From Patescibacteria group bacterium (GTDB lineage: Bacteria > Patescibacteriota > Microgenomatia > JAMCZE01), in NCBI GenBank assembly GCA_023485845.1, contig JAMCZE010000010.1:156046-220045 (forward strand): a DNA stretch of 64,000 nt, read 5' to 3'. The notes under the pieces were generated by a model, which saw only the letters and a program-made list of their open reading frames with translations, was not told the DNA's origin and ran no database searches. Both the position numbers and the translations under genes were made by a program. Below, piece after piece: positions 2,356 through 40,120 of the stretch (positions are counted from its first letter, which is position 1; each line of letters begins with the position of its first letter).

Positions 2356-2724
2356 TTAAACATTCATTTCTAACATGCCCTTGAACCTCTGCTTCCGGTA
2401 TTTCAGGTTCAGGCACTTTCGACAACCAATTAAACTATTTACTATGTGCCGGTATATTACTCCCACTCGACGGGAGCACCTAGGACATATGAACCAAAAT
2501 CTCTCGCCGTCAAATTTGGTCTTTGAGGTTGTTAGCTTAATTTGAACCCCTAAGACATCCGTGTTTGCTGTTAAAAACAGCTTCTTAAACTCCTTATTTG
2601 CCAGTCTTGTCAACTCGTCAACTGACAATTTTTCGGATAACTCAACGAGCTGTAAAGTTCCTAAATCGTATGGGCTTATTAAATTATTCATGGTTATTTG
2701 CTTGTACAATCTGGTTTTGTCCAA
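2356..2724 (-). CDS. zinc-ribbon protein (CPRC...CRKC), function unknown
   Basis: 122-aa ORF with four Cys in two CxxC pairs near the C-terminus. Confidence 0.4.
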   Translation of the reverse strand: MDKTRLYKQITMNNLISPYDLGTLQLVELSEKLSVDELTRLANKEFKKLFLTANTDVLGVQIKLTTSKTKFDGERFWFICPRCSRRVGVIYRHIVNSLIGCRKCLNLKYRKQRFKGMLEMNV

Positions 2725-3301: not shown

Positions 3302-3319
3302 GGAAGTAACCAGAAAGCT

Positions 3320-3535
3320 TTAGTCGAATAGCTCAGAAAGTTTTATTCCTAAAACACGGGAGATTTTATCGGCGGTTTTAATTGATGGTACGCGCTGACC
3401 TTGTTCAATAAATCCGACGTAAGTAGAAGAAACGCCGATTCTTTCGGCTAATTCCTCTTGTGTAAGTTCAGCTTTCTTTCTGGCTTTTTGAATTTTTTGT
3501 CCAACATTTTTTAGTTGCCTAGTATTCACTCTCAT
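3320..3535 (-). CDS. XRE-family helix-turn-helix transcriptional regulator
   Basis: 71 aa. The segment LTQEELAERIGVSSTYVGFIEQGQRVPSIKTADKISRVLGIKLSELF is a Cro/C1-type HTH. Confidence 0.8.
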   Translation of the reverse strand: MRVNTRQLKNVGQKIQKARKKAELTQEELAERIGVSSTYVGFIEQGQRVPSIKTADKISRVLGIKLSELFD

Positions 3536-3638
3536 GACGCTATTATTACTAGCGTAGAGAGTATCTGCCTCAAACTATTTGTTAGGCTTTGTGCTAATAT
3601 CGAATAGAGAAGATTGTCTAACTATATGTTTGGGCAAT

Positions 3639-4229
3639 ATGAAAAAGATTGAAGATTTAAACAAAGGAGATCTTATTAAGGCAGACTTATATTCAAGGCC
3701 AAATTACATGGTCGGTAACTATAAAAATGGTCAAATCGTAGGACTAAATAATTTAGAAGAGGTTAAGAGTAGTGACGTTTTCTTTTTGGAAACATTAAAA
3801 GTAAGAGCTGATTCCGCTGATAAAATTTTCGCCGAGGCTGAAGCCCAAGGTAAAGATTTAAGTGATCCAAATGTATTGAAAAAATTAGGTGAAGAAATTA
3901 ACAATTTAGGAACTCCAGTTCATCAAAGTCAGTCGATAATGACGGCAGTTTTTGTTTCGTTACGATTGATGGCGTATTACGGAATTGCTATAGGGATTTG
4001 GGGACTAGTCCTTAAAAAGGGCTTCTTCGTATTTGTTTTTTATGGGGTTGTTGCGGGGTTTTTAATCAGTTTATTATCTGTCGCACCCGTAGTTGCTTTT
4101 CAGAGGACAAGGGAACGTATCAGGAATATGGTATTTGGCGCAGGTTTACTGTGGGGAAATTTAGGAATAGTTATTGGCGTTGGGGGTTTAATTGCGCTAA
4201 TCATTAGGATAATCTTTTTAGGTAAGTGA
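3639..4229 (+). CDS. membrane protein: soluble N-terminal domain plus 3-4 C-terminal transmembrane helices
   Basis: ORF 3579-4229; the likely start is MKKIEDL at 3639. Hydrophobic helices after about residue 110. Its stop overlaps the next gene by ATGA (4226-4229). Confidence 0.5.
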   Translation: MKKIEDLNKGDLIKADLYSRPNYMVGNYKNGQIVGLNNLEEVKSSDVFFLETLKVRADSADKIFAEAEAQGKDLSDPNVLKKLGEEINNLGTPVHQSQSIMTAVFVSLRLMAYYGIAIGIWGLVLKKGFFVFVFYGVVAGFLISLLSVAPVVAFQRTRERIRNMVFGAGLLWGNLGIVIGVGGLIALIIRIIFLGK

Positions 4230-4759
4230 TAAGTCCCAAATTGTTCCGTCTAATTAAATCCCAATATGATCTACCCATTAACTCTTTACATGGTTTACCT
4301 CACTGGAAGCATGTAGAAGCCCTTGGAAGGCGTCTAGCAACCTCGACCAAAGCTGATCTGCGTGTAATTACCCTTTTCGCGTATCTCCATGATTCTTGTC
4401 GTAAAAATGATGATTTTGATCCCGAGCATGGAGTCCGTGCAGTAAAATTTGTTAAAGAGTTGTTTGAAGCTAAAATGCTTAATATCACCACAAAACAACT
4501 TGAGACTTTAGTCTTTGCATGCCAGTTCCATAATCAAAAACAAATTAAGCCAAAGAATATAACTGTGGCGACTTGTTGGGATGCTGATAAATTGGATCTA
4601 GAAAGAATGGGAACTACTCCAGACTCCAATTATCTTTTTACAGAAGTGGCTAAGAAATATAACGCTGCTGGTCCAGGGGCTTCTCTGGCTATCCGAGAAC
4701 TAGCAGGATTTCTTTTGAGTAAATACAATCTTCTAACCCAAACTGGGAAAGAAATATAG
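4226..4759 (+). CDS. HD-domain metal-dependent phosphohydrolase (small, 177 aa)
   Basis: H...H (GLPHWKHV), HD (AYLHDS), H (CQFHNQ) and D (CWDADKLD) in the spacing expected for an HD domain. Confidence 0.55.
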   Translation: MISPKLFRLIKSQYDLPINSLHGLPHWKHVEALGRRLATSTKADLRVITLFAYLHDSCRKNDDFDPEHGVRAVKFVKELFEAKMLNITTKQLETLVFACQFHNQKQIKPKNITVATCWDADKLDLERMGTTPDSNYLFTEVAKKYNAAGPGASLAIRELAGFLLSKYNLLTQTGKEI

Positions 4760-4789
4760 TTGAAAAACTAAGAAGCGTTATGGCACCAG

Positions 4790-5803
4790 TTAGTTAACCG
4801 GGTGGGGATTTGCGAGACTTAATAACTGAGTAGCAATTATTTGGGCAATGATTGGATGACTTAATAGCTTACTGTTGATATCTCCCGGAATCTTCTTAAT
4901 TTTATCCCAAAGATCTCTAACTTTATTTTGTTCAGGTGTTGATTTTTGAATTTCAGTCTCAAGTTGAGAAACTAACTGAACCGCTTCTTCATTATTTTCG
5001 ATGTCCATCTTTCTAATTTCTTTCTTAACAGCATTAAACGCATCGCTAACCTGAGATTTAACAATGGTTGTGTTATTACTTCCATTGATTGTGGTAGCCA
5101 GAATATCTCCCCCAACATTTATTGTTTGTTGCTCAATTTGTAACGAAAAGAGTGAGTTAAATGTGGTCGGATTCTCATAAACATCAATTCCGTGTTTAGT
5201 TATTATTACTGCAACATAACCAATCGAACTTAAGTTAGCCTCAATAAAACCTCCCTCTTTTAGGTACTTTAGATTTCTTTCAATTTCAACGTCGGTAACA
5301 GGAATAGCTTTTTGCAGTCTGCCTTTTGTTACATAAGAATGGGGCGATTCCTGCCATTTCGCATAGCAAACTTTTATAATTTCCCTCCTTATTTGGGTAT
5401 TTGTTGGCATACTACTGGCAAAAATAACCTCTCGGGCAGTTGCCTCCATTGTCATAGCGGCTTGAAAGTAAATGACTCCTTCTTGTTTTTGGATACTGTC
5501 ATTACAGTGAAACACTATTTGTTTTCTTTCAGAGTCAGAAGGGTTGATTAAAGCCGGCAAAACTTGCCAAACAAAATCAGTTAGCTCGTCTTCGGATATT
5601 TTTCTACCAACACTTGCGGTCCACTGATTGATAACTCTATCGGTGACAGAAATAGAGATACCTTTTGCATTTTTATTTCCATCGATGTTGTATCTTAAAC
5701 CGACACCATAAATTATGTTAAGCGGCCCCTGAAAGCCTTTGCCCATTAACTGGATGGTATATTCGTGTTCATCGATATTTAGTGTCCTTTTGTCTTCGTT
5801 CAT
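4790..5803 (-). CDS. hypothetical protein (337 aa), co-transcribed downstream of the membrane trypsin-like protease
   Basis: ORF present. The upstream protease stop (5805) is 2 nt from this start (5803). No recognisable domain. Confidence 0.5.
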   Translation of the reverse strand: MNEDKRTLNIDEHEYTIQLMGKGFQGPLNIIYGVGLRYNIDGNKNAKGISISVTDRVINQWTASVGRKISEDELTDFVWQVLPALINPSDSERKQIVFHCNDSIQKQEGVIYFQAAMTMEATAREVIFASSMPTNTQIRREIIKVCYAKWQESPHSYVTKGRLQKAIPVTDVEIERNLKYLKEGGFIEANLSSIGYVAVIITKHGIDVYENPTTFNSLFSLQIEQQTINVGGDILATTINGSNNTTIVKSQVSDAFNAVKKEIRKMDIENNEEAVQLVSQLETEIQKSTPEQNKVRDLWDKIKKIPGDINSKLLSHPIIAQIIATQLLSLANPHPVN

Positions 5804-5804
5804 T

Positions 5805-7103
5805 TCAATAAATATTATTCAACCTCTGGGCGATACTGCCAGATTCATAACTCATCTTAACTACAGCATCCCACATAATAAGATCGTCCTGGGTCGCATT
5901 CTTTCCTGAGCCTAGCCGATTGACCAAAGTTTGACAAAAGATAATTTGCCGGTCGAAAGAATCCAGTAACTTGTTAATATCATCACTGGGATACTTATCT
6001 CTGTGTTTGAGCCAACTGTCTCGCCAACCATATAAATTATTAAGATAAGTTTGTATCTCTCCCAAGTTAAGAGTTGGGCTGTTGGAAGGAACGTTGGGAC
6101 TATTTGTATAAGTAGTGGTTTTTGCTACACCTGGGATTGCTGTATTTTCACTACCTTCTTTTATTAATTTATCAACAAGTGGAGCAATAGTCTGGGAAGA
6201 AATAGCGTTTCCCAATCCCTCAAGTGGTCGGGGCAACTGTTCGTCGGTCCAAATTTCTTTTAAGGTATTGATTCCTACAACACCACATTCGTTAATCAGC
6301 GGCCCGCCAGAATTGCCGGGGTTGATCGCCGCGTCGGTTTGAACGAAATCCAAACCACCTTCGTAGCGATTCAGTCGAGAATAGATTCCCTTTGTAATCG
6401 TGGAATCACCAACCGCCGTATTTGGCCAGCCTACAGCATACAACTCTTCGGCTAAATTAAGTTTTGAGGAGTCAAACCAGTTAATAGTAAATCCTTCATT
6501 GGGAAGCTTTATGATGGCAATATCCATCGTTGGGGAGTAATTCCAAAGTTTAAGTTCTTTTCTTTCCCCGTTAAGCCAGGTGTAAAGCTTTTTGGCTCCC
6601 TCGACAACGTGTTTGTTGGTAACCGCAAATCCTTTGGCCGTCGAAAAAGCACTGCCATGACCGCCATCGTCTCTCTCGACAAGCATTGTGCTCGACTTTG
6701 CCAAAGCGATCGTTTTCTCACGGTTACAACCGTTTCGGTTTTCGATCATATTGTCACTTACCGTTACACTAGAAGACGGTTGATTATAGGAACCACTCTT
6801 GGAAATAATGACAACCAAAATCGTTCCCATGATCCAACAAGCGATAAAACCAACGGCTACCAACCTAAAAGTTTTTTTCCAAAAAGTAAAAAAGGTAACG
6901 ATCATTGTGGCAAAGGCATAAAGAAATACGATTCGAACCACATTAATCATTCCTGTTTGTGCCATTTCTGACTGGCTACCGCTAGCTTGATTAAGAAAAG
7001 GAAACATGGCTACGAAACTAACAATATTAAGAATTACAAAAAGAAGTCCACTAAGAGCAAGTTTGCCAAAAATCGAGCCAATTTTTTTGATTTTTCCTGT
7101 CAC
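5805..7103 (-). CDS. membrane-anchored trypsin-like (S1 family) serine protease
   Basis: About 4 N-terminal TM helices. The catalytic triad is in trypsin order: H in TNKHVVEG, D in MDIAIIKL, S in GNSGGPL. A DegP-like terminal helix (AISSQTIAPLVDKLIKEG) is followed by about 110 aa of unknown domain. Confidence 0.8.
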   Translation of the reverse strand: MTGKIKKIGSIFGKLALSGLLFVILNIVSFVAMFPFLNQASGSQSEMAQTGMINVVRIVFLYAFATMIVTFFTFWKKTFRLVAVGFIACWIMGTILVVIISKSGSYNQPSSSVTVSDNMIENRNGCNREKTIALAKSSTMLVERDDGGHGSAFSTAKGFAVTNKHVVEGAKKLYTWLNGERKELKLWNYSPTMDIAIIKLPNEGFTINWFDSSKLNLAEELYAVGWPNTAVGDSTITKGIYSRLNRYEGGLDFVQTDAAINPGNSGGPLINECGVVGINTLKEIWTDEQLPRPLEGLGNAISSQTIAPLVDKLIKEGSENTAIPGVAKTTTYTNSPNVPSNSPTLNLGEIQTYLNNLYGWRDSWLKHRDKYPSDDINKLLDSFDRQIIFCQTLVNRLGSGKNATQDDLIMWDAVVKMSYESGSIAQRLNNIY

Positions 7104-7140
7104 ACGTAAATTATAATCCAGTCAGCTTATAATAGAAATT

Positions 7141-7980
7141 ATGAAAAGATACCGATTATATAATTTTGATTTTGATTCCCGCGCTAGTGTTTTAAACCTC
7201 GAAATTAAAGAAGAGTGGAAAGAGGAGACTAAACGACTGCATCGAGAAAATAAAATTAAGATTGAAGAGATGTTTATTGAGGAATATGGAAAGTTAAACT
7301 GGGACCAGAAAGTTAAAAACATAAAAGACTTGGGGTCGAAACCAATTTCCATTGTCGCCTTCCATAATCGTTTTTTTAATCAGATACGGAGCAGTTTTAT
7401 TATTGGCTCTTACTACCCAGCGCTCACAGGAGCTTGTGCGTTGGGGGAACGCATATTGAACCACTTAATTTTTGCTTTGAAGGAAGACTTTAGAAACACG
7501 CCAGAGTATAAAAAGGTCTATAACATAGAATCTATTGATGATTGGGATGAGATGTTGGATATTCTGGAAAAATGGAAAATTCTCTTACCTGACGTCATAT
7601 CCAATTATCGTTTGCTAAAAAATATTAGGAATAAGAAGGCCATTCATTTTGATAAAGAAACCGACACCGAAGATAGAAAGTTGGCGCTTGAAGCAATTAA
7701 GCTTTTGGCAATGATTATCACTGGGCAATTCTCATATGCAGGATACCAGCCATGGTTTATTGAAAATACCAGAGGATCGTTTTACATAAAGAAAAACTGG
7801 GAAGACAAACCGTTCATTAAAAGAATTTATCTTCCAAATTGTCGCTTAGTTGGGCCATATCACAAACTAGGAACCAATTTTGAGGTAATTGACAATTATC
7901 CCTATACTGATAAAGAAATTACCGACGCAGAGTTTGTTAGATTGATGGAACAAGCCCGGCAAGGTATATTTTTAAAATAA
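7141..7980 (+). CDS. hypothetical protein with a possible HEPN-type Rx5H motif (Abi-like?)
   Basis: 279 aa. RNKKAIH fits the Rx4-6H HEPN motif. Size is similar to AbiD/AbiF-type proteins. Weak support only. Confidence 0.4.
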   Translation: MKRYRLYNFDFDSRASVLNLEIKEEWKEETKRLHRENKIKIEEMFIEEYGKLNWDQKVKNIKDLGSKPISIVAFHNRFFNQIRSSFIIGSYYPALTGACALGERILNHLIFALKEDFRNTPEYKKVYNIESIDDWDEMLDILEKWKILLPDVISNYRLLKNIRNKKAIHFDKETDTEDRKLALEAIKLLAMIITGQFSYAGYQPWFIENTRGSFYIKKNWEDKPFIKRIYLPNCRLVGPYHKLGTNFEVIDNYPYTDKEITDAEFVRLMEQARQGIFLK

Positions 7981-7984
7981 AAGT

Positions 7985-8518
7985 ATGGATAATACATACG
8001 AGGCTGTAAGGCGTGTATTAAATGCACTAAACATAGATCAAAGCCAAAGAGATCAAGCGGAGTTATATGGAAAAATACGAAGGAAAGAAATTTCTTTGGA
8101 TGAATTTTTTGTTGTGCAAAAGCGATTGGATTTATCGATGATTAGCAAATCTACACCGTTTTCATGGAAAGATCTACTAAGAGAAAACGTTGATACCTAT
8201 AATCACGAAAGACGACATGAGGCTGTCTGGTACAAATATGGTGTAAAGACAAATTTGTTTAATTGGAACATACACCCTGACGCGTATTTTGTAATGGATT
8301 TGGATTTTCCAGAGGTTACAAAAACAAATGGCTTTAATGTCGACAAAGTAATCTCAATCTACAAAGAAATGTTGTCAGCTTCTTTCAAAAATCAAAACCA
8401 AATTACAAACTCTTACCTGATGGATGTGTTTTTCTTCGAAGTTTTGGACAAATTAGATGATTTTCGAGCAAACAGTATTTACGAGGTTTTCAAAAAGTAT
8501 AATTGGCAATACCCATAA
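7985..8518 (+). CDS. hypothetical protein (177 aa)
   Basis: ORF 5 bp downstream of the previous gene. No motif recognised. Confidence 0.4.
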   Translation: MDNTYEAVRRVLNALNIDQSQRDQAELYGKIRRKEISLDEFFVVQKRLDLSMISKSTPFSWKDLLRENVDTYNHERRHEAVWYKYGVKTNLFNWNIHPDAYFVMDLDFPEVTKTNGFNVDKVISIYKEMLSASFKNQNQITNSYLMDVFFFEVLDKLDDFRANSIYEVFKKYNWQYP

Positions 8519-8564
8519 TAGTGAATTCTGCTGAATAAAAACTTGAACTTTGCTAAAATAAGAT

Positions 8565-8960
8565 ATGAGTTCAAACGTCGAGAATAGCCCGTTGAATGAT
8601 GTTTTTCAAAACGTTAATACTTGGCAAGATTTTGCTGATGCCCTTCCACCTAGTTTAATAGAAACTTTTGGGAATGATGAGCAATTTTTTCTAACAATGC
8701 GACTTCTAGATGTTAATACCCCATCAAACACTCCTATAACCCATGATGCTTTTAAAGCACTTGTGGCAGTCAAAAGAAGTGATAAGGGATTTGTTCCGTT
8801 ACCCGGAGATGAAGCGGACCAGTTATTAGACAGTTCGTTAAAATCTGGCCTATTGCTACCAATGACTACAGAAGGCCCTCTTGGGTCTCGTTTTGCCCCC
8901 AATCCCCTGTTCAAGGAGGCAATCGCACGATTTGATAAGAACGAGCCAAAAGCTGAGTAG
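8565..8960 (+). CDS. hypothetical protein (131 aa)
   Basis: ORF present. No motif recognised. Confidence 0.35.
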   Translation: MSSNVENSPLNDVFQNVNTWQDFADALPPSLIETFGNDEQFFLTMRLLDVNTPSNTPITHDAFKALVAVKRSDKGFVPLPGDEADQLLDSSLKSGLLLPMTTEGPLGSRFAPNPLFKEAIARFDKNEPKAE

Positions 8961-9120
8961 TAATTTCATTTGAAGATTTTGAACGTAAAAAGTTTGAATG
9001 TGTTCCATCCGGGGCTGCTAAGAATAGTCTAGAGCGTATTGACGGCCTTAATTATGGCGTGACTGACAACAGGAACTTTGAAGAGTATTTGATCGGTGGT
9101 GCTATTCCCCACTCAACTCC

Positions 9121-9149
9121 TTGACAATCTTAAAAATACTTCCTACAAT
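9121..9149 (+). promoter_or_regulatory. sigma70-type promoter (TTGACA-17-TACAAT) with a 7-bp dyad operator (TATGAAT-GTAT-ATTCATA) just downstream, ahead of arsR
   Basis: Perfect consensus hexamers at 9121-9126 and 9144-9149. The dyad at 9149-9166 overlaps the arsR start region. Confidence 0.55.
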
Positions 9150-9153
9150 ATGA

Positions 9154-9522
9154 ATGTATATTCATATTATGTCGACAGAAACTAAAAAACTCCAGAAAAT
9201 ATTAAGTCTTATCGCCAATGACAATAAGCTAAAAATTGTCCTTCACCTGGCAAAAGGCGAAGCCTGTGTCTGCGATATGGGGGAAAAATTAGGAATTGAA
9301 CAATCGCTGGTTTCTCATCATCTTAATTCCTTAAAAGAAGCCAGACTGGTTAAGGATCGAAAAATCGGTGCATGGGTGCACTACTCTCTTAATAAGCAGG
9401 AGATGGAAAATTTTTTTCAACTAATTAGCAAACATCTCGGACCGAACAATATTTCCGGCAAAATGTGTTCGGTTCATGAGGCGTGTAAATGTCTGACGGA
9501 AGGAGTCGCGTATGCAACCTAA
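9154..9522 (+). CDS. arsR: ArsR/SmtB-family metalloregulator
   Basis: HTH plus the metal-binding CVCD motif (LAKGEACVCDMGEKLGIEQSLVSHHLNSLKEARLV). The true start may be MSTETKK at 9169. Confidence 0.85.
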   Translation: MYIHIMSTETKKLQKILSLIANDNKLKIVLHLAKGEACVCDMGEKLGIEQSLVSHHLNSLKEARLVKDRKIGAWVHYSLNKQEMENFFQLISKHLGPNNISGKMCSVHEACKCLTEGVAYAT

Positions 9523-9820
9523 ATTTATTATTTATGACCCGCCGATGTGTTGCTCAACCGGTGTCTGCGGACCCAACCCTGATCAATCCCTGATAAAACT
9601 GCAGGATACTCTGGCAGCCCTTAAAAAGTCCGGTTATGAGGTGGAAAGGTATCTTATCACCCAATCCCCGGAGAAATTCAAAGAAAATCCGGAAGTAATA
9701 AAACTAATTCAGGAACAACAATTAAAAGTCCTGCCAATTACTACCATGGACGGGGTAATTGTGAAGACCGGCGGTTATCCGGCATTGGAAGAATTTAAAA
9801 AGTTTGCTGAGAGCAAATAA
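9512..9820 (+). CDS. arsD: ArsD arsenic metallochaperone/repressor
   Basis: N-terminal MCCSTGVCG (vicinal Cys12-Cys13 plus Cys18 signature). About 100 aa. Sits between arsR and arsA. Confidence 0.85.
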   Translation: MQPKFIIYDPPMCCSTGVCGPNPDQSLIKLQDTLAALKKSGYEVERYLITQSPEKFKENPEVIKLIQEQQLKVLPITTMDGVIVKTGGYPALEEFKKFAESK

Positions 9821-9853
9821 ACAGAGTTTGTTTCTCGCTTAGCTCGAAATAAT

Positions 9854-11698
9854 ATGCGGACTAAATTTTATTTTTATTCAGGCAAGGGCGGGGTTGGCAA
9901 AACTACCATGGCCGCCGCCAGTGCTATTCATTTTGCCGCTTCAGGGAAGAAAACACTCATAATTACCACCGATCCCGCTTCAAATTTGGCCGATGTCTTT
10001 GAACAGCCGATTGGTCACAAAGTCACCTCAATTAAAGGAATACCAAACCTTTACGCGATGGAGCTTGATCCGGATATTGCCACGGCGGAATACAAGGAAA
10101 GAACTCTGGCTCCCCTACGGGGGCTTATCCCCGTTGAAAGTTTTGCCGTTCTTGAAGAGCAACTTAATTCCCCCTGCACCGCGGAAATGGCCGCTTTTGA
10201 CCGTTTCACTGATTTCTTAGGGGAATCGGAATATGAAGTTGTCATCTTTGATACGGCACCGACGGGTCACACTCTCCGACTTTTAGAATTGCCGGTTGAA
10301 TGGAGTGGCGTGATTGAAAAAGCTGCCAATGATGGCAGTGGCGGCCAAACCTGTATCGGTCCGGCAGCCGCCCTTGCCGAGTCCAAGGCGAAATTCGACA
10401 GGGCAATCAACGCTATGCGGGATCCCAGGCAAACTGTTTTTGTTTTTGTCCTAAGACCGGAAGTAACCCCCATATACGAAGCCAAAAGATCAATCGCTGA
10501 ACTCTTAAAATTAAAGATCACTTCACAGGAGCTTATCGTCAACAGCATTTACCCTAAAAGTGCCTGTGACAATCCCTTTATGCTCCGACGTTTTGCTAAG
10601 CAACAGGAGTTTTTGCAAAACATCAAAGATGCTTTTTCCATTCCGATTACCCTAATGGAACTTGAGCCGGGGGAAATAAAAGGCGGAAAACTCCTAACAA
10701 TCATCGGAAAAAAACTTTATGAAAAACCGATTATGCTTGCCGACTACACACCGGAAAAGATTGAAATAAAAGGAGACGGAATCACCAATAAATTTCCTAA
10801 GACCGGTAAAAATATCGTCAGCCTTCTGACCCCGAAAAACGGCAACAGACGAACGATATTTTTCGCCGGGAAAGGTGGTGTCGGCAAAACGTCAGTATCA
10901 GCCGCTACCGCTATTTGGGTCGCTAATCAGGGCTATAAAACTCTGCTTTTAACCACCGATCCGGCTTCCCACCTGGGTCAGATCTTTGAAACAGAAGTAA
11001 CCGATAAACCCACTCCAATTAAAGATCAACCAAACCTTTTTGTTACCAGGATTGATGCCCAAAAAGCCACCCGGGAATATAAGGAAAAAATTCTCGCTGA
11101 AGCCCGCCGGAAGTTTGATCAAAACCGGGTGATGGCCATTGAAGAAGAGCTAAACTCCCCCTGCACGGAAGAGATGGCGACTTTTGAAAAGTTTATTGAG
11201 TTTGCCACACTAAAAGATTTTCAGGTGGTCGTTTTTGACACCGCCCCCACCGGCCACACTCTCCGCCTGTTGGAATTACCGGTTGACTGGAATAAGCAGC
11301 TGGAAATCAAAACCTTTACCTCGACTGGGGAAACCGAGGTGGACAAAATCACTAAATCCCGCTTCAAAGAGGTTATCGACATGATGCAGGACATTGAAAA
11401 AACGACTTTCAGTTTTGTCATGTATCCCGAGTCCACGCCGATTGAGGAAGCCAGCCGGGCAATGAAGGAACTTCTGACCATCGGCGTCCCAACGGGACTG
11501 GTGGTAGCTAACTTTATTCTGCCGGATTCGATTGTTACCAATGACTACCTTAAGAAGCGTAAGGCGATGCAGGACAAATACCTTAAAGAGATGGATACCC
11601 GCTTTACCGCTCCCATTGTAAAGCTGTCTCTTCTGCCTGATGATTTAATTGGCAAAGATAAATTAGAAGAAGCCGGTTATTTACTTTATGGAAAATAA
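9854..11698 (+). CDS. arsA: ArsA arsenite-stimulated ATPase (two homologous halves)
   Basis: Two P-loops (GKGGVGKTT, GKGGVGKTS) and two DTAPTGHTLRLL signature sequences. 614 aa. Confidence 0.95.
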   Translation: MRTKFYFYSGKGGVGKTTMAAASAIHFAASGKKTLIITTDPASNLADVFEQPIGHKVTSIKGIPNLYAMELDPDIATAEYKERTLAPLRGLIPVESFAVLEEQLNSPCTAEMAAFDRFTDFLGESEYEVVIFDTAPTGHTLRLLELPVEWSGVIEKAANDGSGGQTCIGPAAALAESKAKFDRAINAMRDPRQTVFVFVLRPEVTPIYEAKRSIAELLKLKITSQELIVNSIYPKSACDNPFMLRRFAKQQEFLQNIKDAFSIPITLMELEPGEIKGGKLLTIIGKKLYEKPIMLADYTPEKIEIKGDGITNKFPKTGKNIVSLLTPKNGNRRTIFFAGKGGVGKTSVSAATAIWVANQGYKTLLLTTDPASHLGQIFETEVTDKPTPIKDQPNLFVTRIDAQKATREYKEKILAEARRKFDQNRVMAIEEELNSPCTEEMATFEKFIEFATLKDFQVVVFDTAPTGHTLRLLELPVDWNKQLEIKTFTSTGETEVDKITKSRFKEVIDMMQDIEKTTFSFVMYPESTPIEEASRAMKELLTIGVPTGLVVANFILPDSIVTNDYLKKRKAMQDKYLKEMDTRFTAPIVKLSLLPDDLIGKDKLEEAGYLLYGK

Positions 11699-12059
11699 TA
11701 TGAACGATTTTAATCAAAAGGTTAATGATTTTACTACCCTTATTCTGGAAACCCCCGAGTTTGCAGAACTCAAAGCAGCCACAGAAGAATTAAAAAAAGA
11801 TCCAAAGGCGACAAAACTAATAGACGACGTTCAAGCTAAAAAAGAAACAGTTATGACTTTACAGCAAACTGGATTACCAGTTTCCAAAAACCAGGAGCTT
11901 GATTTACAAGATGCTTTTGCCAACATGCGTTCCAACCCTACCTGTATGCGGCTTATTAAAGCCCAAAACGCTGCTATCCAAATAGCTAGAAAAGTATGCA
12001 ATCGGTTGACAGTGGCAACGGGAATACCCTTCTCCAGGGGCGGCGGTTGTTGCGGATAA
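11688..12059 (+). CDS. YlbF/YheA (UPF0342)-like helical protein with a C-terminal GGGCCG tail
   Basis: 123 aa. Helical pattern resembles the YlbF family. It ends in RGGGCCG, a vicinal Cys pair. Overlaps the arsA stop. Confidence 0.45.
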   Translation: MENNMNDFNQKVNDFTTLILETPEFAELKAATEELKKDPKATKLIDDVQAKKETVMTLQQTGLPVSKNQELDLQDAFANMRSNPTCMRLIKAQNAAIQIARKVCNRLTVATGIPFSRGGGCCG

Positions 12060-12063
12060 TTTT

Positions 12064-12546
12064 ATGCACAAATTTTATAAACTCCAATCGTTAGTTCTGC
12101 TCGCCGGGACAATTTTTGTCTGGTTCACGGTTTATACTGATTTCAGTCGATTTTATAAATTCTATGGCTCTTTAACCCGTATACAAAATTGCGTTATCCC
12201 CAACCCCATAACTACGCCATGTTTTTATGGTGCCTTTGCTTTCTTAATTGCTTTTATTTGGTCACTGTTTATCCTCAAAAAGAAAGTTGAAGAAAGATTG
12301 CCCCAGGAAATTAAACTAAGAATCCTTTTGATCGCTTCTACAATTTTCGCTTGGAGCAACTTTTTCTTGGGAATCAATCAATATTATTCTGCTATAAGCG
12401 GCCCAAAAGTTTCTTGTTCCGGAGTACCGACAAATAACCCCATTCTCACTGCTTGTTTTTTTGGTTCGATTATATTTTTGATAGCTCTTGCCGTTTCAAT
12501 AACTATTATCCGTAGCAATAGGCATTCTGCTGATAGTAGTTGCTAA
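12064..12546 (+). CDS. small 4-TM membrane protein with an internally duplicated TM-(Cys-x10-12-Cys loop)-TM unit
   Basis: 160 aa. Loops CVIPNPITTPCFYG and CSGVPTNNPILTACFFG each sit between two hydrophobic helices. Confidence 0.5.
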   Translation: MHKFYKLQSLVLLAGTIFVWFTVYTDFSRFYKFYGSLTRIQNCVIPNPITTPCFYGAFAFLIAFIWSLFILKKKVEERLPQEIKLRILLIASTIFAWSNFFLGINQYYSAISGPKVSCSGVPTNNPILTACFFGSIIFLIALAVSITIIRSNRHSADSSC

Positions 12547-12596
12547 CGTAGTTCACTAGGGACTGCCATTTTTCTAGGCACGATTTTAATATCAAA

Positions 12597-13775
12597 CTAC
12601 ATTAGGCCCGCAAAAGGAATCGAACTAATAAAACTTTTTTCCAGAATATCTAGCCCTCTATTTAAGTTTCTATTGCTAATTATCGCTGGTGGAAAAATAT
12701 CAATTACTCTTTCGTTAAGAGCCTCAATAACTAGCCCGTTTTCCAAACATTTATCAGCTATTTTCTTGGCCAATCCGTCTCGTTCAAACTCTATGAATGT
12801 TGCTAAACCTTTGCTGCGAATAGTACTCCCACTGGGTAAGTTCATACTTAAAAGTCTTTTATTAATAATTAAATTTAGTGAATTTACTTTTCCCAAAATA
12901 CTTTGTTTGTTTTTTAAAAAGTATTTTAGATATGCTAGCGTGATATCCACGTTAAGTGGTTGCCATGCAAATGTTGAATAATAGCTAAATTCAAATTCCA
13001 TCGTTTTCGCCAGTTTTTGATTCATAAGAGTTGCTCCTAAAACGGCATTCCCACCCGTTAATCCCTTTCCCAAACAAACAATATCTGGGAACAAATCAAA
13101 GTATTCTGAAGCAAACATTTTACCCGTTCGACCAAACCCTGTAGCTACCTCATCAATGATAAAAACAGTGCCATATTTTTTACAGGATTCCTGAACTAAT
13201 TGAAAATATTCTTTGCTTGGCTCAACTAGTCCGTTATTAAATATAAACGGTTCGGAAATGTAAGCAGCAATATCTCCCTTATTTATTCTATTAGCTACTT
13301 TTTGTCCAATTTTTCTATCTAGCTGCCCTTTAACCTTTTCGCAGGGCCACAAATGCGGAAATAAATCTTTGTAATGGGAAAACCCTACACTTAAAGCGGC
13401 TAATGAGTGACCATGATATCCTTCTGGAGAAATAAATTTCGATCTCTTAGTATGAAGGATTGCCGCTTGGAGAGCAATTTCGACAGCTTCGGTACCACCT
13501 GTTGCCCGAAAGACCTTTCCCATTTTTCCCGGCGCAATAGAAATCAGTAACTTAGCCAATTCTTCCCATGGTTCGTAAGAGAAGTTTGGATCAACGTAGG
13601 TCGGGCCAAGAAAGTTTTTTCTGGCACTTTGTACTTCCGGGAGACTCCAACCTAAGATACCGCACCAGTTAGTAGAGAAATCAATATATTTCTTGCCAGA
13701 AACGTCGAACAAGTTCTCCCCCTTGGCAGATTTAACATTAATTCTTCTTGCCGGAACATCTCGACCTAAATACAT
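12597..13775 (-). CDS. class III PLP-dependent aminotransferase
   Basis: Motifs DEVATGFGRTGKMFA and LGKGLTGG (PLP-lysine region). 392 aa. Confidence 0.85.
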   Translation of the reverse strand: MYLGRDVPARRINVKSAKGENLFDVSGKKYIDFSTNWCGILGWSLPEVQSARKNFLGPTYVDPNFSYEPWEELAKLLISIAPGKMGKVFRATGGTEAVEIALQAAILHTKRSKFISPEGYHGHSLAALSVGFSHYKDLFPHLWPCEKVKGQLDRKIGQKVANRINKGDIAAYISEPFIFNNGLVEPSKEYFQLVQESCKKYGTVFIIDEVATGFGRTGKMFASEYFDLFPDIVCLGKGLTGGNAVLGATLMNQKLAKTMEFEFSYYSTFAWQPLNVDITLAYLKYFLKNKQSILGKVNSLNLIINKRLLSMNLPSGSTIRSKGLATFIEFERDGLAKKIADKCLENGLVIEALNERVIDIFPPAIISNRNLNRGLDILEKSFISSIPFAGLM

Positions 13776-13906
13776 AAATCACAATAAGGCCTATTCTATC
13801 ATTTACCTTGGTAACAAGTTGCTGACATAGTTTATTAGGGTCTGCCAATTTTCTAGGCACGATTTTCGTAACAAACAACGTCAGACCCGCAAGAGGAATC
13901 GGACTT

Positions 13907-14620
13907 CTAAAAATTTTTACCAGTTCTGGAGATTTCGTCAATGAAACTTAAATTACCTTTAAAGGCTTTAACGATATTGATTTCTCTCATGAAAGCTTCC
14001 TTTGTCTGAAACGGTTTCGTGATGTAATTTTCTACTTCTGCTGCCTTAACCCACTCGTATTTACCTTCCTCACTTTCTACTAATTTACCTTCTGGATTTC
14101 TGAAAACGCATAACGCCAATAATAAATCGTCAAGTAATTCGCTCGTGGCTTCGTCAAGCGTGCAGTAGTGTAAAATTGCCACCACTTCCGGCTCACCGTT
14201 TAATCCTGTTTCTTCAAATAACTCTCTTTTCGCTGCGTCACCAAATCTTTCACCTAATTCCACTTTCCCTGCGGGAAAACCCTGACAACCATAAAATGGG
14301 TGTTTTAATCTAGTGTAAAGTAAAAACTTGGCGCCTTCCTTTTCTTCTTTTACACAGCACACTGCTACCCCAATTTTTGCTTGCTGGCGAATAGTTGCTT
14401 CCCCCAAATCCATACGTGCAGCAAATTTTTTCCCTTGTGTTGTTAAATAATATTTTCCGTCGTTTTTTTGAATACGACCTAATTTAATAAGCTGGTCCAA
14501 ATGAAACTGAAACTGGTTATTACCCATATCTTTATCTGGCTTAAGCTTGGTATAAGAGAGAGGCTGTTCGAAGGCAAGTTTCTTAATTATCTCAAGTTGG
14601 GTCTTATGTATATTCTCCAT
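13907..14620 (-). CDS. NUDIX hydrolase with an N-terminal winged-helix DNA-binding domain
   Basis: Nudix box GFPAGKVELGERFGDAAKRELFEETGL in the C-terminal half. The N-terminal roughly 90 aa is wHTH-like. Confidence 0.7.
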   Translation of the reverse strand: MENIHKTQLEIIKKLAFEQPLSYTKLKPDKDMGNNQFQFHLDQLIKLGRIQKNDGKYYLTTQGKKFAARMDLGEATIRQQAKIGVAVCCVKEEKEGAKFLLYTRLKHPFYGCQGFPAGKVELGERFGDAAKRELFEETGLNGEPEVVAILHYCTLDEATSELLDDLLLALCVFRNPEGKLVESEEGKYEWVKAAEVENYITKPFQTKEAFMREINIVKAFKGNLSFIDEISRTGKNF

Positions 14621-14889
14621 ATAAAGGGATTATACCTTGCTAGCAGCTCATTTCTAGTCTAGCCTTATTGACTACGCAGAAGATACTAGAACCGCCCTGC
14701 ATTTTCTTGGTAGTAGTTACTACTACAGTTCACTGGGATCTACTTGTGCAAGCATTACACAACTATAAACTTTTGAGCACAATAAGTTCGAATGTGTTCC
14801 ATCCAGGGCTGCCAATTTTCACTTTCAGAGTATTTAGCTACTATGTTGAATGGTACTGTCAAGTACCCCTTTTGTTGCACACTCTTTCT

Positions 14890-15654
14890 CTAAACCCGGC
14901 TTAGAAATTTTGCCTTGAATTTGACCGGGGAAGTCTTGAGCTTGGTGTGGATCCTCTCGTGGTTGTAATAGTTGATGGTTTTGTGAATAGCCTCCACAAA
15001 CTCGCCGATCGTCTCAAATCTTTCAAATTCCAATCCTAAGTCTGTTTTAAAGTTGTCGTAGAAGGATTCCTGGTAACCGTTCTCCCAAGGACTGGCTTTA
15101 GCAGACATGCTCACCTGGATTCCCAGGCCTTCTAAAAAGTTGGTGTAATCCTTCGAGTTGTACTCGGCTCCCTGATCAGTGTGAGCCACTACTGGTTTAC
15201 CCACTGTTTTAATGGCATCCAAGAAAGCCTCAAGAACCAACTCTGTAGTGTGCCTGGTGGAAATTGACCAGCCAACAATTTCCCGGGTAAACAGATCCAT
15301 AAAAGTGGCTAGGTAAATAATCCTCTGGTTCCAGGCTAGCCGGGTAAAATCCCCGGCAAAATAGACTCGGGGTTTGATGGGACAACTACCCTTAATTAGA
15401 TTGGGAAACTTTGACAGTGGATTTCCCCAATCTTTCTTTTTTGTCCACCTGGCCTTTCTCTTGTAGGGTTTAATCCCAAATAATTTCATCACTCGTCTGA
15501 CTCGTTTCTTCCCGATTTCCAAAGCCAAAGCTACTCTCCGGTGGCCATAACTAGGATTAGTTTCCAAGATCTTAAGGATTTGCTCTTTTAGAGCCGAATC
15601 TTTTGTCCCTTGCCTAAGGTTGTCGGTGTAAAGATTTCTTCGGGAGATGCCCAA
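14890..15654 (-). CDS. IS3-family transposase OrfB (DDE integrase core)
   Basis: rve-type core: D in HTDQGAEY, E in SPWENGYQESF. The frame is open upstream to the A-run. The track start is TTG. Confidence 0.85.
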   Translation of the reverse strand: MGISRRNLYTDNLRQGTKDSALKEQILKILETNPSYGHRRVALALEIGKKRVRRVMKLFGIKPYKRKARWTKKKDWGNPLSKFPNLIKGSCPIKPRVYFAGDFTRLAWNQRIIYLATFMDLFTREIVGWSISTRHTTELVLEAFLDAIKTVGKPVVAHTDQGAEYNSKDYTNFLEGLGIQVSMSAKASPWENGYQESFYDNFKTDLGLEFERFETIGEFVEAIHKTINYYNHERIHTKLKTSPVKFKAKFLSRV

Positions 15655-15706
15655 AGAATTGGAAATAAGGGACTTGGGTATTTGAGGAAGCTTGGCTTCG
15701 ACAATT

Positions 15707-15961
15707 TTACCTAAGTTTCTTTTTTTTTACCTTCTCCACTTCCAGAGACAAAACCCCAATGATCTCCTTTAGTTGCCGGTTCTCTTTTTTAAGTCTCAGG
15801 TGCTCAATCCAGCTGACTTTGTTGGTGGTGTTCCACCTAAGCCAGCCATAAATGGTTTTGGGGGAGATTCCGTAAGTTTGGGCCAGAGTGGCGGCAGATT
15901 CCCCGGATTTAATCTTGGCCAGGACCTCCTCTTTGACCTCTTTGGCAATAGCGGTTTTCAA
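15707..15961 (-). CDS. IS3-family transposase OrfA (HTH plus leucine zipper)
   Basis: 84 aa, HTH (LAQTYGISPKTIYGWLRW). It ends in the A9G slippery run GTAAAAAAAAAG. Confidence 0.85.
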   Translation of the reverse strand: MKTAIAKEVKEEVLAKIKSGESAATLAQTYGISPKTIYGWLRWNTTNKVSWIEHLRLKKENRQLKEIIGVLSLEVEKVKKKKLR

Positions 15962-16011
15962 AAATATTCACCCCCTTAAATAAGTGTCCTTAGTTTACAG
16001 ACACTGTGTGC

Positions 16012-16040
16012 ATTTTAAGGGGTACCTGTCCTACTGTCAA
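16012..16040 (-). promoter_or_regulatory. junction promoter formed by the abutted IS3 ends: TTGACA (16040-16035), 17-nt spacer, TAAAAT (16017-16012), reading toward orfA of copy A
   Basis: The -35 hexamer lies in the end of copy B and the -10 hexamer in the end of copy A. The 17-nt spacer was read directly from the sequence. Confidence 0.6.
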
Positions 16041-16067
16041 GTACCCCTTTTGTTGCACACTCTTTCT

Positions 16068-16832
16068 CTAAACCCGGCTTAGAAATTTTGCCTTGAATTT
16101 GACCGGGGAAGTCTTGAGCTTGGTGTGGATCCTCTCGTGGTTGTAATAGTTGATGGTTTTGTGAATAGCCTCCACAAACTCGCCGATCGTCTCAAATCTT
16201 TCAAATTCCAATCCTAAGTCTGTTTTAAAGTTGTCGTAGAAGGATTCCTGGTAACCGTTCTCCCAAGGACTGGCTTTAGCAGACATGCTCACCTGGATTC
16301 CCAGGCCTTCTAAAAAGTTGGTGTAATCCTTCGAGTTGTACTCGGCTCCCTGATCAGTGTGAGCCACTACTGGTTTACCCACTGTTTTAATGGCATCCAA
16401 GAAAGCCTCAAGAACCAACTCTGTAGTGTGCCTGGTGGAAATTGACCAGCCAACAATTTCCCGGGTAAACAGATCCATAAAAGTGGCTAGGTAAATAATC
16501 CTCTGGTTCCAGGCTAGCCGGGTAAAATCCCCGGCAAAATAGACTCGGGGTTTGATGGGACAACTACCCTTAATTAGATTGGGAAACTTTGACAGTGGAT
16601 TTCCCCAATCTTTCTTTTTTGTCCACCTGGCCTTTCTCTTGTAGGGTTTAATCCCAAATAATTTCATCACTCGTCTGACTCGTTTCTTCCCGATTTCCAA
16701 AGCCAAAGCTACTCTCCGGTGGCCATAACTAGGATTAGTTTCCAAGATCTTAAGGATTTGCTCTTTTAGAGCCGAATCTTTTGTCCCTTGCCTAAGGTTG
16801 TCGGTGTAAAGATTTCTTCGGGAGATGCCCAA
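16068..16832 (-). CDS. IS3-family transposase OrfB (copy B)
   Basis: Identical to 14890-15654. Confidence 0.85.
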   Translation of the reverse strand: MGISRRNLYTDNLRQGTKDSALKEQILKILETNPSYGHRRVALALEIGKKRVRRVMKLFGIKPYKRKARWTKKKDWGNPLSKFPNLIKGSCPIKPRVYFAGDFTRLAWNQRIIYLATFMDLFTREIVGWSISTRHTTELVLEAFLDAIKTVGKPVVAHTDQGAEYNSKDYTNFLEGLGIQVSMSAKASPWENGYQESFYDNFKTDLGLEFERFETIGEFVEAIHKTINYYNHERIHTKLKTSPVKFKAKFLSRV

Positions 16833-16884
16833 AGAATTGGAAATAAGGGACTTGGGTATTTGAGGAAGCTTGGCTTCGACAATT

Positions 16885-17139
16885 TTACCTAAGTTTCTTT
16901 TTTTTTACCTTCTCCACTTCCAGAGACAAAACCCCAATGATCTCCTTTAGTTGCCGGTTCTCTTTTTTAAGTCTCAGGTGCTCAATCCAGCTGACTTTGT
17001 TGGTGGTGTTCCACCTAAGCCAGCCATAAATGGTTTTGGGGGAGATTCCGTAAGTTTGGGCCAGAGTGGCGGCAGATTCCCCGGATTTAATCTTGGCCAG
17101 GACCTCCTCTTTGACCTCTTTGGCAATAGCGGTTTTCAA
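16885..17139 (-). CDS. IS3-family transposase OrfA (copy B)
   Basis: Identical to 15707-15961. Confidence 0.85.
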   Translation of the reverse strand: MKTAIAKEVKEEVLAKIKSGESAATLAQTYGISPKTIYGWLRWNTTNKVSWIEHLRLKKENRQLKEIIGVLSLEVEKVKKKKLR

Positions 17140-17332
17140 AAATATTCACCCCCTTAAATAAGTGTCCTTAGTTTACAGACACTGTGTGCATTTTAAGGGG
17201 TACCTGTCCACTTTATAAAGATAATGCAACCATAAGGCAAGCGGATTTCCCATTGTTAATTGATGTTTTTTTTGAAAATGCTAAGCCTAATATCCAAAAA
17301 CTTTTGGCTGTAGAAGCAGAAATTATTAGAGA

Positions 17333-17877
17333 GTGACACTCCTCGCAGCAAGCTGCGAGGCATCTGCATTGCTAAAATAGCCTGAGTTGGTCTTTTGATA
17401 TTTGGACATAGTCTTTTGGTCTTCCTTGGTTTCTGATGTACTTTTGGATGACTGTCTCAGAATTGCTTCGTCCTACTGAATTTACGAAATACCCGTCAGT
17501 CCAAAACTGGGCTCCCCAAAGGCTTTCCCTCAACCCGGCAACTCGTTTGAGAAGTTCCCGGGCCAGGATACTTTTGACCGTTCTGGCAATTTTGGTAGGA
17601 GAATATGTAGGCACTGACTGGATCAAAAAATGGACATGATCACCGTCGGCCCCAATCTCCACAAAATGCATCTCGTACCTTTGGGAAATTTCCTGACAGA
17701 TCTGTTTTAGTTGGGCATCCACCTCTGTCGAGATCACGAGTTGCCTTCCCTTGGCCACACAAACCAGATGGTACAAAAGCACCGAGACATTGTGCGCTTT
17801 GTGTATGTAGATACTCACGCATACAATTTTACCCTCTCGCGGCAAAGCCGCGGGGAATGAACCCTAAAAGAGATTCA
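17333..17877 (-). mobile_element. IS200/IS605-family insertion sequence, copy 2
   Basis: Identical to the 545-bp copy 1. Confidence 0.85.
17372..17845 (-). CDS. tnpA: IS200-like Y1 transposase TnpA (copy 2)
   Basis: Identical to 1594-2067. Confidence 0.9.
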   Translation of the reverse strand: MPREGKIVCVSIYIHKAHNVSVLLYHLVCVAKGRQLVISTEVDAQLKQICQEISQRYEMHFVEIGADGDHVHFLIQSVPTYSPTKIARTVKSILARELLKRVAGLRESLWGAQFWTDGYFVNSVGRSNSETVIQKYIRNQGRPKDYVQISKDQLRLF

Positions 17878-17899
17878 CAATCTTAAAATAGCTTTTAAT

Positions 17900-18355
17900 T
17901 CAGATAACCAGTTTTGCAAAAAGACTTTTGGAGGGAGGCGTGAGTTTAACCTTTGCTAATTCTTCAAGAGTAAACCATTTGTATTCTGACAATTCATCAT
18001 CAAGCTGAACTTTTACCTCACTGCTATTTCTATCATTGATGTCAATTCGATAGACGTTGAAATGCATTTCAACAAGAACCCTCTCATTTGTGTCCTTTAA
18101 GGTTTTTTCTGATGTTCCCGTTCCCTCATCATTAACAAGTTCAGTTGCGTACCCTTCAACCTCTAACCCTATTTCTTCTTTCAGTTCTCTTCTTAATGCC
18201 TGAGTCTTGTTTTCGCCTTGATCCACACCTCCTCCTGGAATATGCCAGCAATCAATATAAACTCCACCGCCAGTTGGATTCTTTTTTACCATCAATAATC
18301 TTTTATCTTTTGAAAAAAGTAAGCCCGATACAATTTCTCTCTTGATCGTTCTCAT
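17900..18355 (-). CDS. NUDIX hydrolase
   Basis: Nudix box GGGVDQGENKTQALRRELKEEIGL. 151 aa. Lies between IS200 copies 2 and 3. Confidence 0.85.
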   Translation of the reverse strand: MRTIKREIVSGLLFSKDKRLLMVKKNPTGGGVYIDCWHIPGGGVDQGENKTQALRRELKEEIGLEVEGYATELVNDEGTGTSEKTLKDTNERVLVEMHFNVYRIDINDRNSSEVKVQLDDELSEYKWFTLEELAKVKLTPPSKSLFAKLVI

Positions 18356-18380
18356 ATTATTTCTTTACGTTGTAATGTAA

Positions 18381-18925: not shown

Positions 18926-18958
18926 GGAATGGGAAGCACAAGGAGGATTTAATAAGAA

Positions 18959-40104: not shown

Positions 40105-40120
40105 GCAATGAGCAATAACT

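Follow-up and report, generated by a model that had tools for sequence, protein, structure and literature searches.

ArsA is the textbook ATPase that energises a secondary arsenite carrier. Here, we describe an arsR-arsD-arsA operon from a Patescibacteria group bacterium in which arsA has no gene for such a carrier, ArsB or Acr3, beside it and is followed by the genes for two unusual cysteine proteins, namely a small helical protein with a GGGCCG tail that resembles the haloarchaeal protein HcsL, and a 160-residue membrane protein, which we call Mem160. The operon lies in a 64-kb stretch of a 227-kb contig (JAMCZE010000010.1, positions 156,046 to 220,045), referred to throughout as the window and numbered from its own first nucleotide. 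With moderate confidence, we read the region as one ArsR-controlled transcription unit that unites two arsenic modules, the first being arsD-arsA-hcsL-like and the second Mem160.

Between positions 9121 and 12576 of the plus strand, five co-directional and tightly packed open reading frames (ORFs) run from arsR to the gene for Mem160, with intergenic gaps of 1 to 33 nt, or overlaps, throughout (Table 1). The original prediction, made from the letters of this DNA, had described these five plus-strand ORFs, and the ORF list and family scans bear it out, confirming ArsR, ArsD and ArsA. Some of its details needed revision: position 9121, where the described region begins, is the start not of a gene but of a promoter-like site, the only site in the region 8500-13000 to match the consensus at 11 of 12 positions; the helical protein, given as 123 residues overlapping arsA, is most likely shorter; and the membrane protein, given with Cys-x10-12-Cys loops, has the spacings C43-x9-C53 and C118-x12-C131. 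The hcsL-like ORF can also be read from 11688; since all of its homologues (19/19) begin with MN(D/N), the gene most likely starts at 11700, 1 nt past the arsA stop, and encodes 119 residues. The true start of arsR, in turn, may be the ATG at 9169.

Table 1. Features of the ars operon in the window, and genes for the Zn-ribbon CC-tail protein at three other Patescibacterial loci (numbered within those loci)
Feature	Position	Strand	Evidence
Sigma-70-type promoter-like site, TTGACA-17 nt-TACAAT, upstream of arsR	9121..9149	+	consensus match, 11/12
Palindrome ATGAATGTATATTCAT, between promoter and arsR; candidate ArsR operator	9151..9166	+	read from the sequence
arsR, ArsR/SmtB metalloregulator, CVC motif (EACVCDM)	9154..9522	+	HTH_5 1.6e-14; NF033788 85 bits vs cutoff 55
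arsD, short 102-residue metallochaperone, MCCSTGVC site	9512..9820	+	NF033727 111.6 bits vs cutoff 90
arsA, 614 residues, two-half ArsA ATPase, assigned to haloarchaeal-type clade	9854..11698	+	PF02374 2e-148; best model NF041417
hcsL-like gene, 119-residue YlbF/Ric-fold helical protein, GGGCCG tail; most likely start	11700..12059	+	PF06133 6e-16; NF041416 2e-11
Mem160, 160-residue tetraspan membrane protein, C43/C53/C118/C131	12064..12546	+	no annotated family
Weak terminator-like hairpin and T-rich tail, followed by a convergent aminotransferase gene	12548..12576	+	consensus match only
Zn-ribbon CC-tail protein gene, L081	6528..6782
Zn-ribbon CC-tail protein gene, L082	2281..2553
Zn-ribbon CC-tail protein gene, L083	8365..8619

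The arsA-hcsL cassette and its haloarchaeal counterpart

With the canonical arsRDABC and arsRDA-acr3 operons (E. coli R773; Listeria pLIS5) the window shares ArsR, an ArsD with a Cys12/13/18-type site and a two-half ArsA. ArsD belongs to NF033727/PF06953, scoring above the cutoff and bearing the Cys12-Cys13-x4-Cys18 site (MCCSTGVC), and comparison of the termini shows that it lacks the C-terminal vicinal Cys pairs of R773-type ArsD, a similar tail being present here on a separate protein. ArsA consists of two tandem halves with GKGGVGKT P-loops at residues 10-17 and 339-346, and its Cys108, Cys167 and Cys437 are conserved in all 12 ArsAs that were aligned (10 HcsL-linked and two transporter-linked), those of Listeria, Cytobacillus and the haloarchaea included. 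These three are presumably the counterparts of the metalloid-site triad C113/C172/C422 of R773.

In contrast to the canonical operons, arsA adjoins no gene for ArsB or Acr3, the partner by which a TIGR04291-type ArsA is recognised, and the TIGR04291 model scores 485 bits (cutoff 650) against 637 bits for the best model, NF041417 ArsA_halo (cutoff 800), both falling below their cutoffs. A search of 72,556 plasmids returned only haloarchaeal ArsAs as nearest relatives, at 41-43% identity, as against about 35% for Listeria and E. coli; identity is 42-44% to the ArsA of Halobacterium pNRC100 and about 36% to transporter-linked ArsA. Its closest relatives are thus haloarchaeal and hcsL lies directly 3' of arsA, as described for ArsA_halo relatives, and by these comparisons the window ArsA belongs to a haloarchaeal-type clade. 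A further cysteine, Cys238 (codon at about 10565-10567), lies in the motif P-x-x-x-C-[DET]-[ND]-[PD] and is invariant in the 10 HcsL-linked ArsAs (10/10), which span Patescibacteria, haloarchaea and an archaeal-type metagenomic locus (L096); the position is His in the Acr3-linked ArsA of Listeria and the ArsB-linked ArsA of Cytobacillus, a small sample of only two. Cys238 is a candidate contact for the Cys-Cys (CC) tail of the protein encoded next.

The product of the gene directly after arsA falls within the Com_YlbF family (PF06133; 59.3 bits against a gathering score of 23.9). It also matches the NCBIfam model NF041416, HcsL, from end to end (residues 9-122, in the numbering of the longer ORF, against profile positions 3-113 of 113; 44.4 bits, E = 2e-11) and has the features by which HcsL is described, being a YlbF-family protein of ~120 residues with a Gly-rich end carrying Cys-Cys, encoded directly after arsA. 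An AlphaFold2 model (predicted local distance difference test score of 92.5) is a helical bundle with residues 115-119 disordered, whose top 11 matches in the Protein Data Bank are all YlbF/YheA/YmcA or RicA-RicF structures (2oeq, 2iaz, 2pih, 6prk and 6prh among them; Foldseek probability 1.0, TM-score up to 0.73). The close family comprises 20 clusters in a set of 5.8 billion proteins, all Patescibacterial where named, and the CCG of the tail is invariant in all 20 close homologues, which end in GGGCCG or a near variant.

A metagenome scan for this family returned only three loci. Counting all searches, nine other non-haloarchaeal cassettes were retrieved (L080-L085, the more distant L090 and L091, and L096; eight are distinct), and an hcsL-like gene directly follows arsA in every one of them (9/9), with arsR-arsD preceding arsA wherever the contig is long enough. 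No ArsB or Acr3 was found in the 2.9-8 kb flanks of the five loci that were gene-called and Pfam-annotated (L083-L085, L090 and L096); the flank of L081 was read in part. In the annotated records of Halobacterium pNRC100 and of a Haloferax plasmid, arsD, arsA, hcsL and hcsS follow one another and overlap; HcsL is 122 residues long with the ending SLGGGCC, and HcsS is 62 residues long with the ending SDCC. A tblastn search of the plasmids with the HcsL-like protein did not reach haloarchaeal HcsL; the link was obtained through the ArsA plasmid search and profile searches.

The window and the haloarchaeal clusters (NRC-1 pNRC100 and Haloferax; NF041417, NF041416, NF041415) have in common the gene order, the tight packing, an ArsA clade with Cys238, a short ArsD without a tail, and the absence of a linked ArsB or Acr3. 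They differ in that the host is a Patescibacterium and not a halophilic archaeon, the NCBI scores are below the cutoffs, one more Gly follows the CC of the tail, the operon opens with a co-directional arsR, and HcsS is missing, its place being taken by an unrelated Zn-ribbon CC-tail protein in sister loci and by Mem160 here. Because size, tail, position after arsA and ArsA clade are all shared, the 119-residue protein is, judged by sequence and gene order, the Patescibacterial counterpart of the haloarchaeal halo-CC-star HcsL.

A second CC-tail protein often lies 3' of the hcsL-like gene, and is either HcsS/DUF8067 or the Zn-ribbon protein. The latter, of 82-84 residues with two CxxC pairs and the ending GGGGCCGGGGCCG or GCGCNPGDGCCG, has its gene directly behind hcsL-like in three Patescibacterial cassettes (Table 1) and matches no Pfam or NCBIfam model, that of HcsS included; L096 has an HcsS/DUF8067 protein ending SCCG in the same position. 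When the window was searched for a copy of the Zn-ribbon gene or a further CC-tail ORF, none was found besides the hcsL-like gene. HcsL-like and HcsS (DUF8067) also occur as a pair without ArsA in metagenome-assembled genomes of Nanoarchaeia/Woesearchaeota (DPANN archaea; L092-L095), downstream of genes for GcvH, thioredoxin/glutaredoxin, a pyridine-nucleotide disulfide oxidoreductase, radical-SAM proteins and lipoate ligase, and upstream of arsR-(arsM or ferredoxin)-arsE-ArsP_1-secreted CxxC protein-DsbD. Every HcsL-like locus examined, these DPANN loci included, is within or beside ars genes.

Tails of this kind are also found on ArsD itself. The ArsDs of cassettes from the candidate phyla radiation and the haloarchaea have 102-109 residues and no Cys tail, the exception being L085, where a 140-residue ArsD has a Cys-rich tail (5691-6113); the ArsD of Listeria, which is encoded beside acr3 and works with Acr3, ends in SGGCCGGEGCC, and R773 ArsD is reported to have the C-terminal vicinal pairs Cys112-113 and Cys119-120 besides its Cys12/13/18 chaperone site (PMC4562236). 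In L090, a separate 68-residue ORF ending NEDGGCC stands between arsD and arsA (3885-4091). From these sequences, the Gly/Cys-Cys tail has the look of a module that some ArsDs carry themselves and that small scaffold proteins otherwise provide in trans. L085 additionally encodes a 180-residue protein ending IDCCRE just upstream of arsR (4744-5286).

The YlbF-family relatives RicF and RicA of Bacillus use their C-terminal Cys to ligate a metal cluster, [4Fe-4S], that is shared with RicT, and their tails are needed for RicT binding (PMC6751060). The HcsL-like protein shares with RicA/RicF (YmcA/YlbF) the helical fold and a flexible, Cys-bearing C-terminal tail, for which a partner contact is presumed. 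It differs in having vicinal rather than spaced Cys, in its setting in an ars operon as opposed to RNase Y and developmental regulation, in a ligand that is presumably As(III) and not an Fe-S cluster, and in that no RicT partner is annotated in the cassette loci, which also sets it outside the Ric type as defined by the functional complex. As the likeness to the ArsD tail, the R773 pairs, the second CC-tail genes and the RicA/RicF precedent converge, we infer that the tail is an arm whose two thiols bind As(III) and which serves ArsD/ArsA in trans.

The membrane protein Mem160

Mem160 has more than 195 homologues, most of them in Patescibacteria and a few in records titled Gallionellaceae, Betaproteobacteria or Gemmatimonadota, and belongs to no annotated family, there being no Pfam or NCBIfam match at E <= 0.1 save a spurious one at 0.059. 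Its AlphaFold2 model has four transmembrane (TM) helices only, where the permeases ArsB (PF02040) and Acr3 (PF01758) have 8-12; the protein matches no specific fold, and neither a transporter nor a MerT/MerF-like arrangement could be recognised. The four Cys named above are invariant in 25 of 25 diverse homologues and lie in repeated loop motifs, CxxPNPxTTPCFYG and CSGx9TxCFxG, which reflect an internal two-fold repeat. The two Cys loops hold 3.3 Lys and Arg residues together, as compared with 6.4 for both termini and the middle loop, and this bias, seen in all 25 homologues, predicts that the Cys loops lie on the outer side of the membrane.

In DsbB and VKOR, four helices form the core and extracytoplasmic loops carry the Cys pairs. 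Like these and MerT/MerF, Mem160 is a small helical membrane protein with conserved Cys pairs; unlike them, it lacks CxxC and has neither the TM nor the cytosolic vicinal Cys pair of MerT/MerF. When four-helix core, loop Cys pairs, CxxC and significant similarity are taken together, it does not belong to DsbB/VKOR.

Across 79 species-representative loci of the family, ArsA, ArsD or HcsL occurs within 8 kb in none (0/79), and there is no dominant conserved neighbour; Mem160 is present in none of the nine other non-haloarchaeal cassettes, nor in the haloarchaeal loci, and no relative was found on the plasmids searched, haloarchaeal megaplasmids included. Because neither the family loci nor any other cassette joins the two, Mem160 is, as far as gene neighbourhoods tell, not a general membrane partner of ArsA.

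Arsenic genes do accompany its closest relatives. They lie within 4 kb of 8 of the 21 Mem160 loci at 55% identity or more, versus 0 of the 53 below that value (Fisher p = 1.4e-5), and are strictly adjacent in 6/21 versus 0/53 (p = 2.9e-4). One close relative (L097; 79-81% identity) directly follows an arsenite methyltransferase gene, arsM (NF008823, 361 bits vs 263); others form the last gene of an arsR-arsE(Trx3)-ArsP_1-permease operon, with overlapping genes at 69% identity (L001, L098) or a 10-nt gap at 60% (L005), adjoin arsM (L003, L017, L016), or stand 1.2 kb from an arsP unit (L006). In these arsenic-linked loci Mem160 either closes the unit behind arsM or arsR-arsE-arsP, or sits immediately upstream of arsM. 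The window resembles the Patescibacterial arsR-arsE(Trx3)-arsP-type operons and arsM genes in that Mem160 is usually the last co-directional gene there, often overlapping the preceding one, and differs in lacking arsP, arsE and arsM, Mem160 following arsRDA-hcsL instead. As the nearest relatives sit by ars genes, and ArsP reportedly acts as an efflux permease for methylarsenite (PMC7229686), the sub-clade is a candidate for an accessory arsenic gene with a role at the envelope.

Around 6001-6471 in L099/L100, a relative of 69% identity is the last gene of DUF5320-DUF134-Mem160, beside Fur and a ZIP transporter, a context related to metals and not to arsenic. In the DPANN loci and L085, ArsP_1 is followed by a gene for a protein of 163-170 residues; considered as a possible Mem160 relative, this protein was rejected, since the profile search was empty and it is a secreted CxxC protein.

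The route out of the cell and competing explanations

The scan took in all ORFs of the whole 64-kb window for which three or more TM segments are predicted, and none encodes ArsB, Acr3 or ArsP. These ORFs comprise P-type cation ATPases, an ABC-2 permease, an acyltransferase, ComEC and a sulfatase-like protein, along with three that have no Pfam match (3579-4229, 39976-40647 and 51432-52196; 216-254 residues, 3-4 predicted TM segments). A route for As(III) export is not encoded in cis. Two of the P-type cation ATPase genes adjoin each other at 24224-26524 and 26813-29206 (-), both with Cation_ATPase_N and the second also with Cation_ATPase_C; no heavy-metal-associated domain was detected in either. 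At two other Patescibacterial loci, ArsP_1-type permease units lie beside or near the arsRDA-hcsL cassette (L081 1455-3443 (-), including arsR and arsE/Trx3; L085 1-455); such units possibly offer an alternative exit route there, and the window has no gene of this type.

On balance, we favour a reading in which the arsD-arsA-hcsL-like module, the Patescibacterial counterpart of haloarchaeal arsD-arsA-hcsL-hcsS, and the Mem160 module are joined in a single unit under ArsR. Arsenite would release ArsR from the operon; ArsD and the dithiol tail of the HcsL-like protein would then take up As(III), with exchange between them and ArsA, the tail serving in trans as the vicinal-thiol site for As(III) that in long ArsDs is part of their own C-terminus. 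It might do so by docking on ArsA/ArsD, akin to the docking of the RicA/RicF Cys tails on RicT with a metal centre shared between them. Mem160, with two Cys-stapled loops predicted to be outward-facing, would be an accessory envelope component of arsenic islands, perhaps binding or handling trivalent or methylated arsenicals, or carrying out thiol-disulfide chemistry, at the outer face; it would not be a channel on which ArsA docks.

Several points weigh against this reading. The HcsL match, at 44 bits, is under the NCBI cutoff of 140, which leaves the protein outside the curated family, and the ArsA_halo match is likewise under its cutoff, as given above. Of 150 diverse representatives of the YlbF family in an exhaustive profile search, about half have CC or Cys-rich tails, and because such tails are common across the family the tail alone is not proof of an arsenic role. 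The occurrence of HcsL and HcsS without ArsA in DPANN archaea means that HcsL is not strictly an ArsA accessory. Binding of As(III), contact with ArsA and the direction of hand-off are all our inferences, and the topology of Mem160 is predicted from charge bias. Mem160 is joined to the arsDA-hcsL cassette in the window only, and about 90% of its family loci have no arsenic context. An unlinked Acr3 or ArsB may be present elsewhere in the genome. Finally, a literature search returned nothing relevant on halo-CC-star, HcsL or HcsS, nor on ArsA with YlbF, and no paper or experiment on HcsL, HcsS or Mem160 was found for any organism.

The unlinked carrier leads to the strongest competing explanation, which we regard as unlikely: ArsD and ArsA would serve a canonical Acr3 or ArsB pump encoded elsewhere, with the two downstream genes as accessories or passengers in a mobile island rich in insertion sequences (ISs). 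The window covers 64 kb of the contig and the genome is larger still, the cassette sits in a low-GC, IS-rich segment and, at some other loci, within mobile or metal-resistance islands, and Halobacterium does have a chromosomal arsB. In Halobacterium NRC-1, however, arsADRC gives resistance to As(III) and Sb(III) and the chromosomal arsB has no role in it, a novel transporter having been proposed (PMC3600143, a review). Moreover, transporter-coupled arsA genes normally adjoin their transporter (as in Listeria arsRDA-acr3 and in Cytobacillus), which no examined cassette of the window-ArsA clade does, and the strict adjacency of arsA and hcsL in Patescibacteria, L096 and haloarchaea argues that HcsL is functional and not a passenger.

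The IS-like units in question lie just downstream of the ars operon as tandem copies, marked by direct repeats of at least 300 nt with 100% identity (14854-15153 = 16032-16331 and 17332-17631 = 18380-18679), and carry rve-type ORFs of 254 residues (14890-15654, 16068-16832) and ORFs of 157 residues (17372-17845, 18420-18893). G+C content is 38-44% over positions 1-20000, which hold the ars operon and the IS copies, versus about 45-54% over 20001-64000, and this lower value suggests that the operon sits in an acquired or variable segment.

The original prediction had suggested that Mem160 may itself be a membrane partner or conduit for ArsA. Spelled out as an explanation, Mem160 would be the missing membrane partner, a substitute for ArsB/Acr3 or a thiol relay conduit, with As(III) passing from ArsD/ArsA, perhaps through the CCG tail, to the Cys of Mem160 and out of the cell. 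Its gene is co-directional with the cassette, starting 4 nt past the hcsL-like stop and ahead of the terminator-like hairpin, the window encodes no further candidate for an arsenic transporter, the sub-clade is linked to arsenic, and the protein has four invariant Cys in a two-fold repeat. Against these stand the complete absence of ArsA, ArsD and HcsL around its family members and its own absence from all other cassettes and from haloarchaea, together with Cys loops predicted to be extracytoplasmic, away from cytosolic ArsA, a mere four TM helices with no transporter or MerT/MerF-like arrangement, and relatives in ars operons that already have a real permease of ArsP type. We therefore consider this role improbable.

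The earlier proposal was, in sum, right in part. The absence of a linked ArsB/Acr3 holds for all multi-TM ORFs of the window, and the notion of the GGGCCG protein as a thiol-based arsenic handler fits a tail that is the C-terminal motif of long ArsDs on a protein encoded after arsA in the nine cassettes and in haloarchaea. The cysteines flagged as unusual recur in all homologues compared and are not due to chance, and Mem160 did not turn out to match a well-known unrelated family. What found no support is Mem160 as a general ArsA conduit or an ArsB substitute; an arsenic role for Mem160 is plausible through the linkage of its sub-clade to arsM and arsR-arsE-arsP.

A further explanation, which we think very improbable, would have the HcsL-like protein work as RicA/RicF do, its Cys tail ligating an Fe-S cluster shared with a partner for redox or Fe-S sensing or protection, regulation or RNA processing, with no arsenite binding. 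The YlbF/Ric fold, the [4Fe-4S] ligation by Ric tails (PMC6751060), the wide spread of Cys-rich tails in the YlbF family, and the DPANN HcsL/HcsS genes beside thiol-redox, radical-SAM and lipoate genes without ArsA would all agree with this; yet the RicAFT authors are aware of no documented example in which neighbouring cysteines coordinate one and the same Fe-S cluster (PMC6751060), no cassette with listed genes has an annotated RicT/YaaT-like gene, the tail motif is that of long ArsDs, and the HcsL-like loci examined are all associated with ars genes. Lastly, the idea of ArsA as a Get3-type targeting factor for tail anchors was dropped: the tail lacks hydrophobic character, being rich in Gly and Cys, and both ArsD and the conserved cysteines of ArsA are intact.

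Implications for a possible resistance without ArsB or Acr3

A novel transporter or partner was reportedly postulated for Halobacterium in 2004, and to our knowledge the missing partner of its ArsA was never found. More broadly, and only tentatively, the ArsA clade and the CC-tail proteins (HcsL-like, HcsS and the Zn-ribbon protein) might constitute an ArsB/Acr3-independent form of resistance in haloarchaea, DPANN archaea and Patescibacteria, with the Cys-tailed proteins as obligate acceptors or adaptors of the ATPase and Mem160 as an arsenic-specific envelope protein not recognised before, and so in effect a new ars gene. If this were true, the partner postulated for Halobacterium would be identified.

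The arsDA-hcsLS arrangement is already known from the NCBI annotation rules for halophilic archaea, for which we found no publication. New here are the occurrence of arsDA-hcsL beyond halophiles, namely in Patescibacteria and at one metagenomic locus of archaeal type, and its ArsA-less form in DPANN; the tie of the CC tails to that of long ArsDs, the clade-specific Cys238 of ArsA and the alternative Zn-ribbon CC-tail protein; and an arsenic-linked branch (arsM, arsP, arsRDA) of a large, unannotated tetraspan family, a candidate new ars gene. Through the link to the C-terminal Cys pairs of long ArsDs, the biochemical hypothesis takes a concrete form, and the question of how ArsA may work without ArsB becomes directly testable. 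With this, the HcsL-type protein moves from a halophile-only annotation to a conserved and testable candidate for the missing function.

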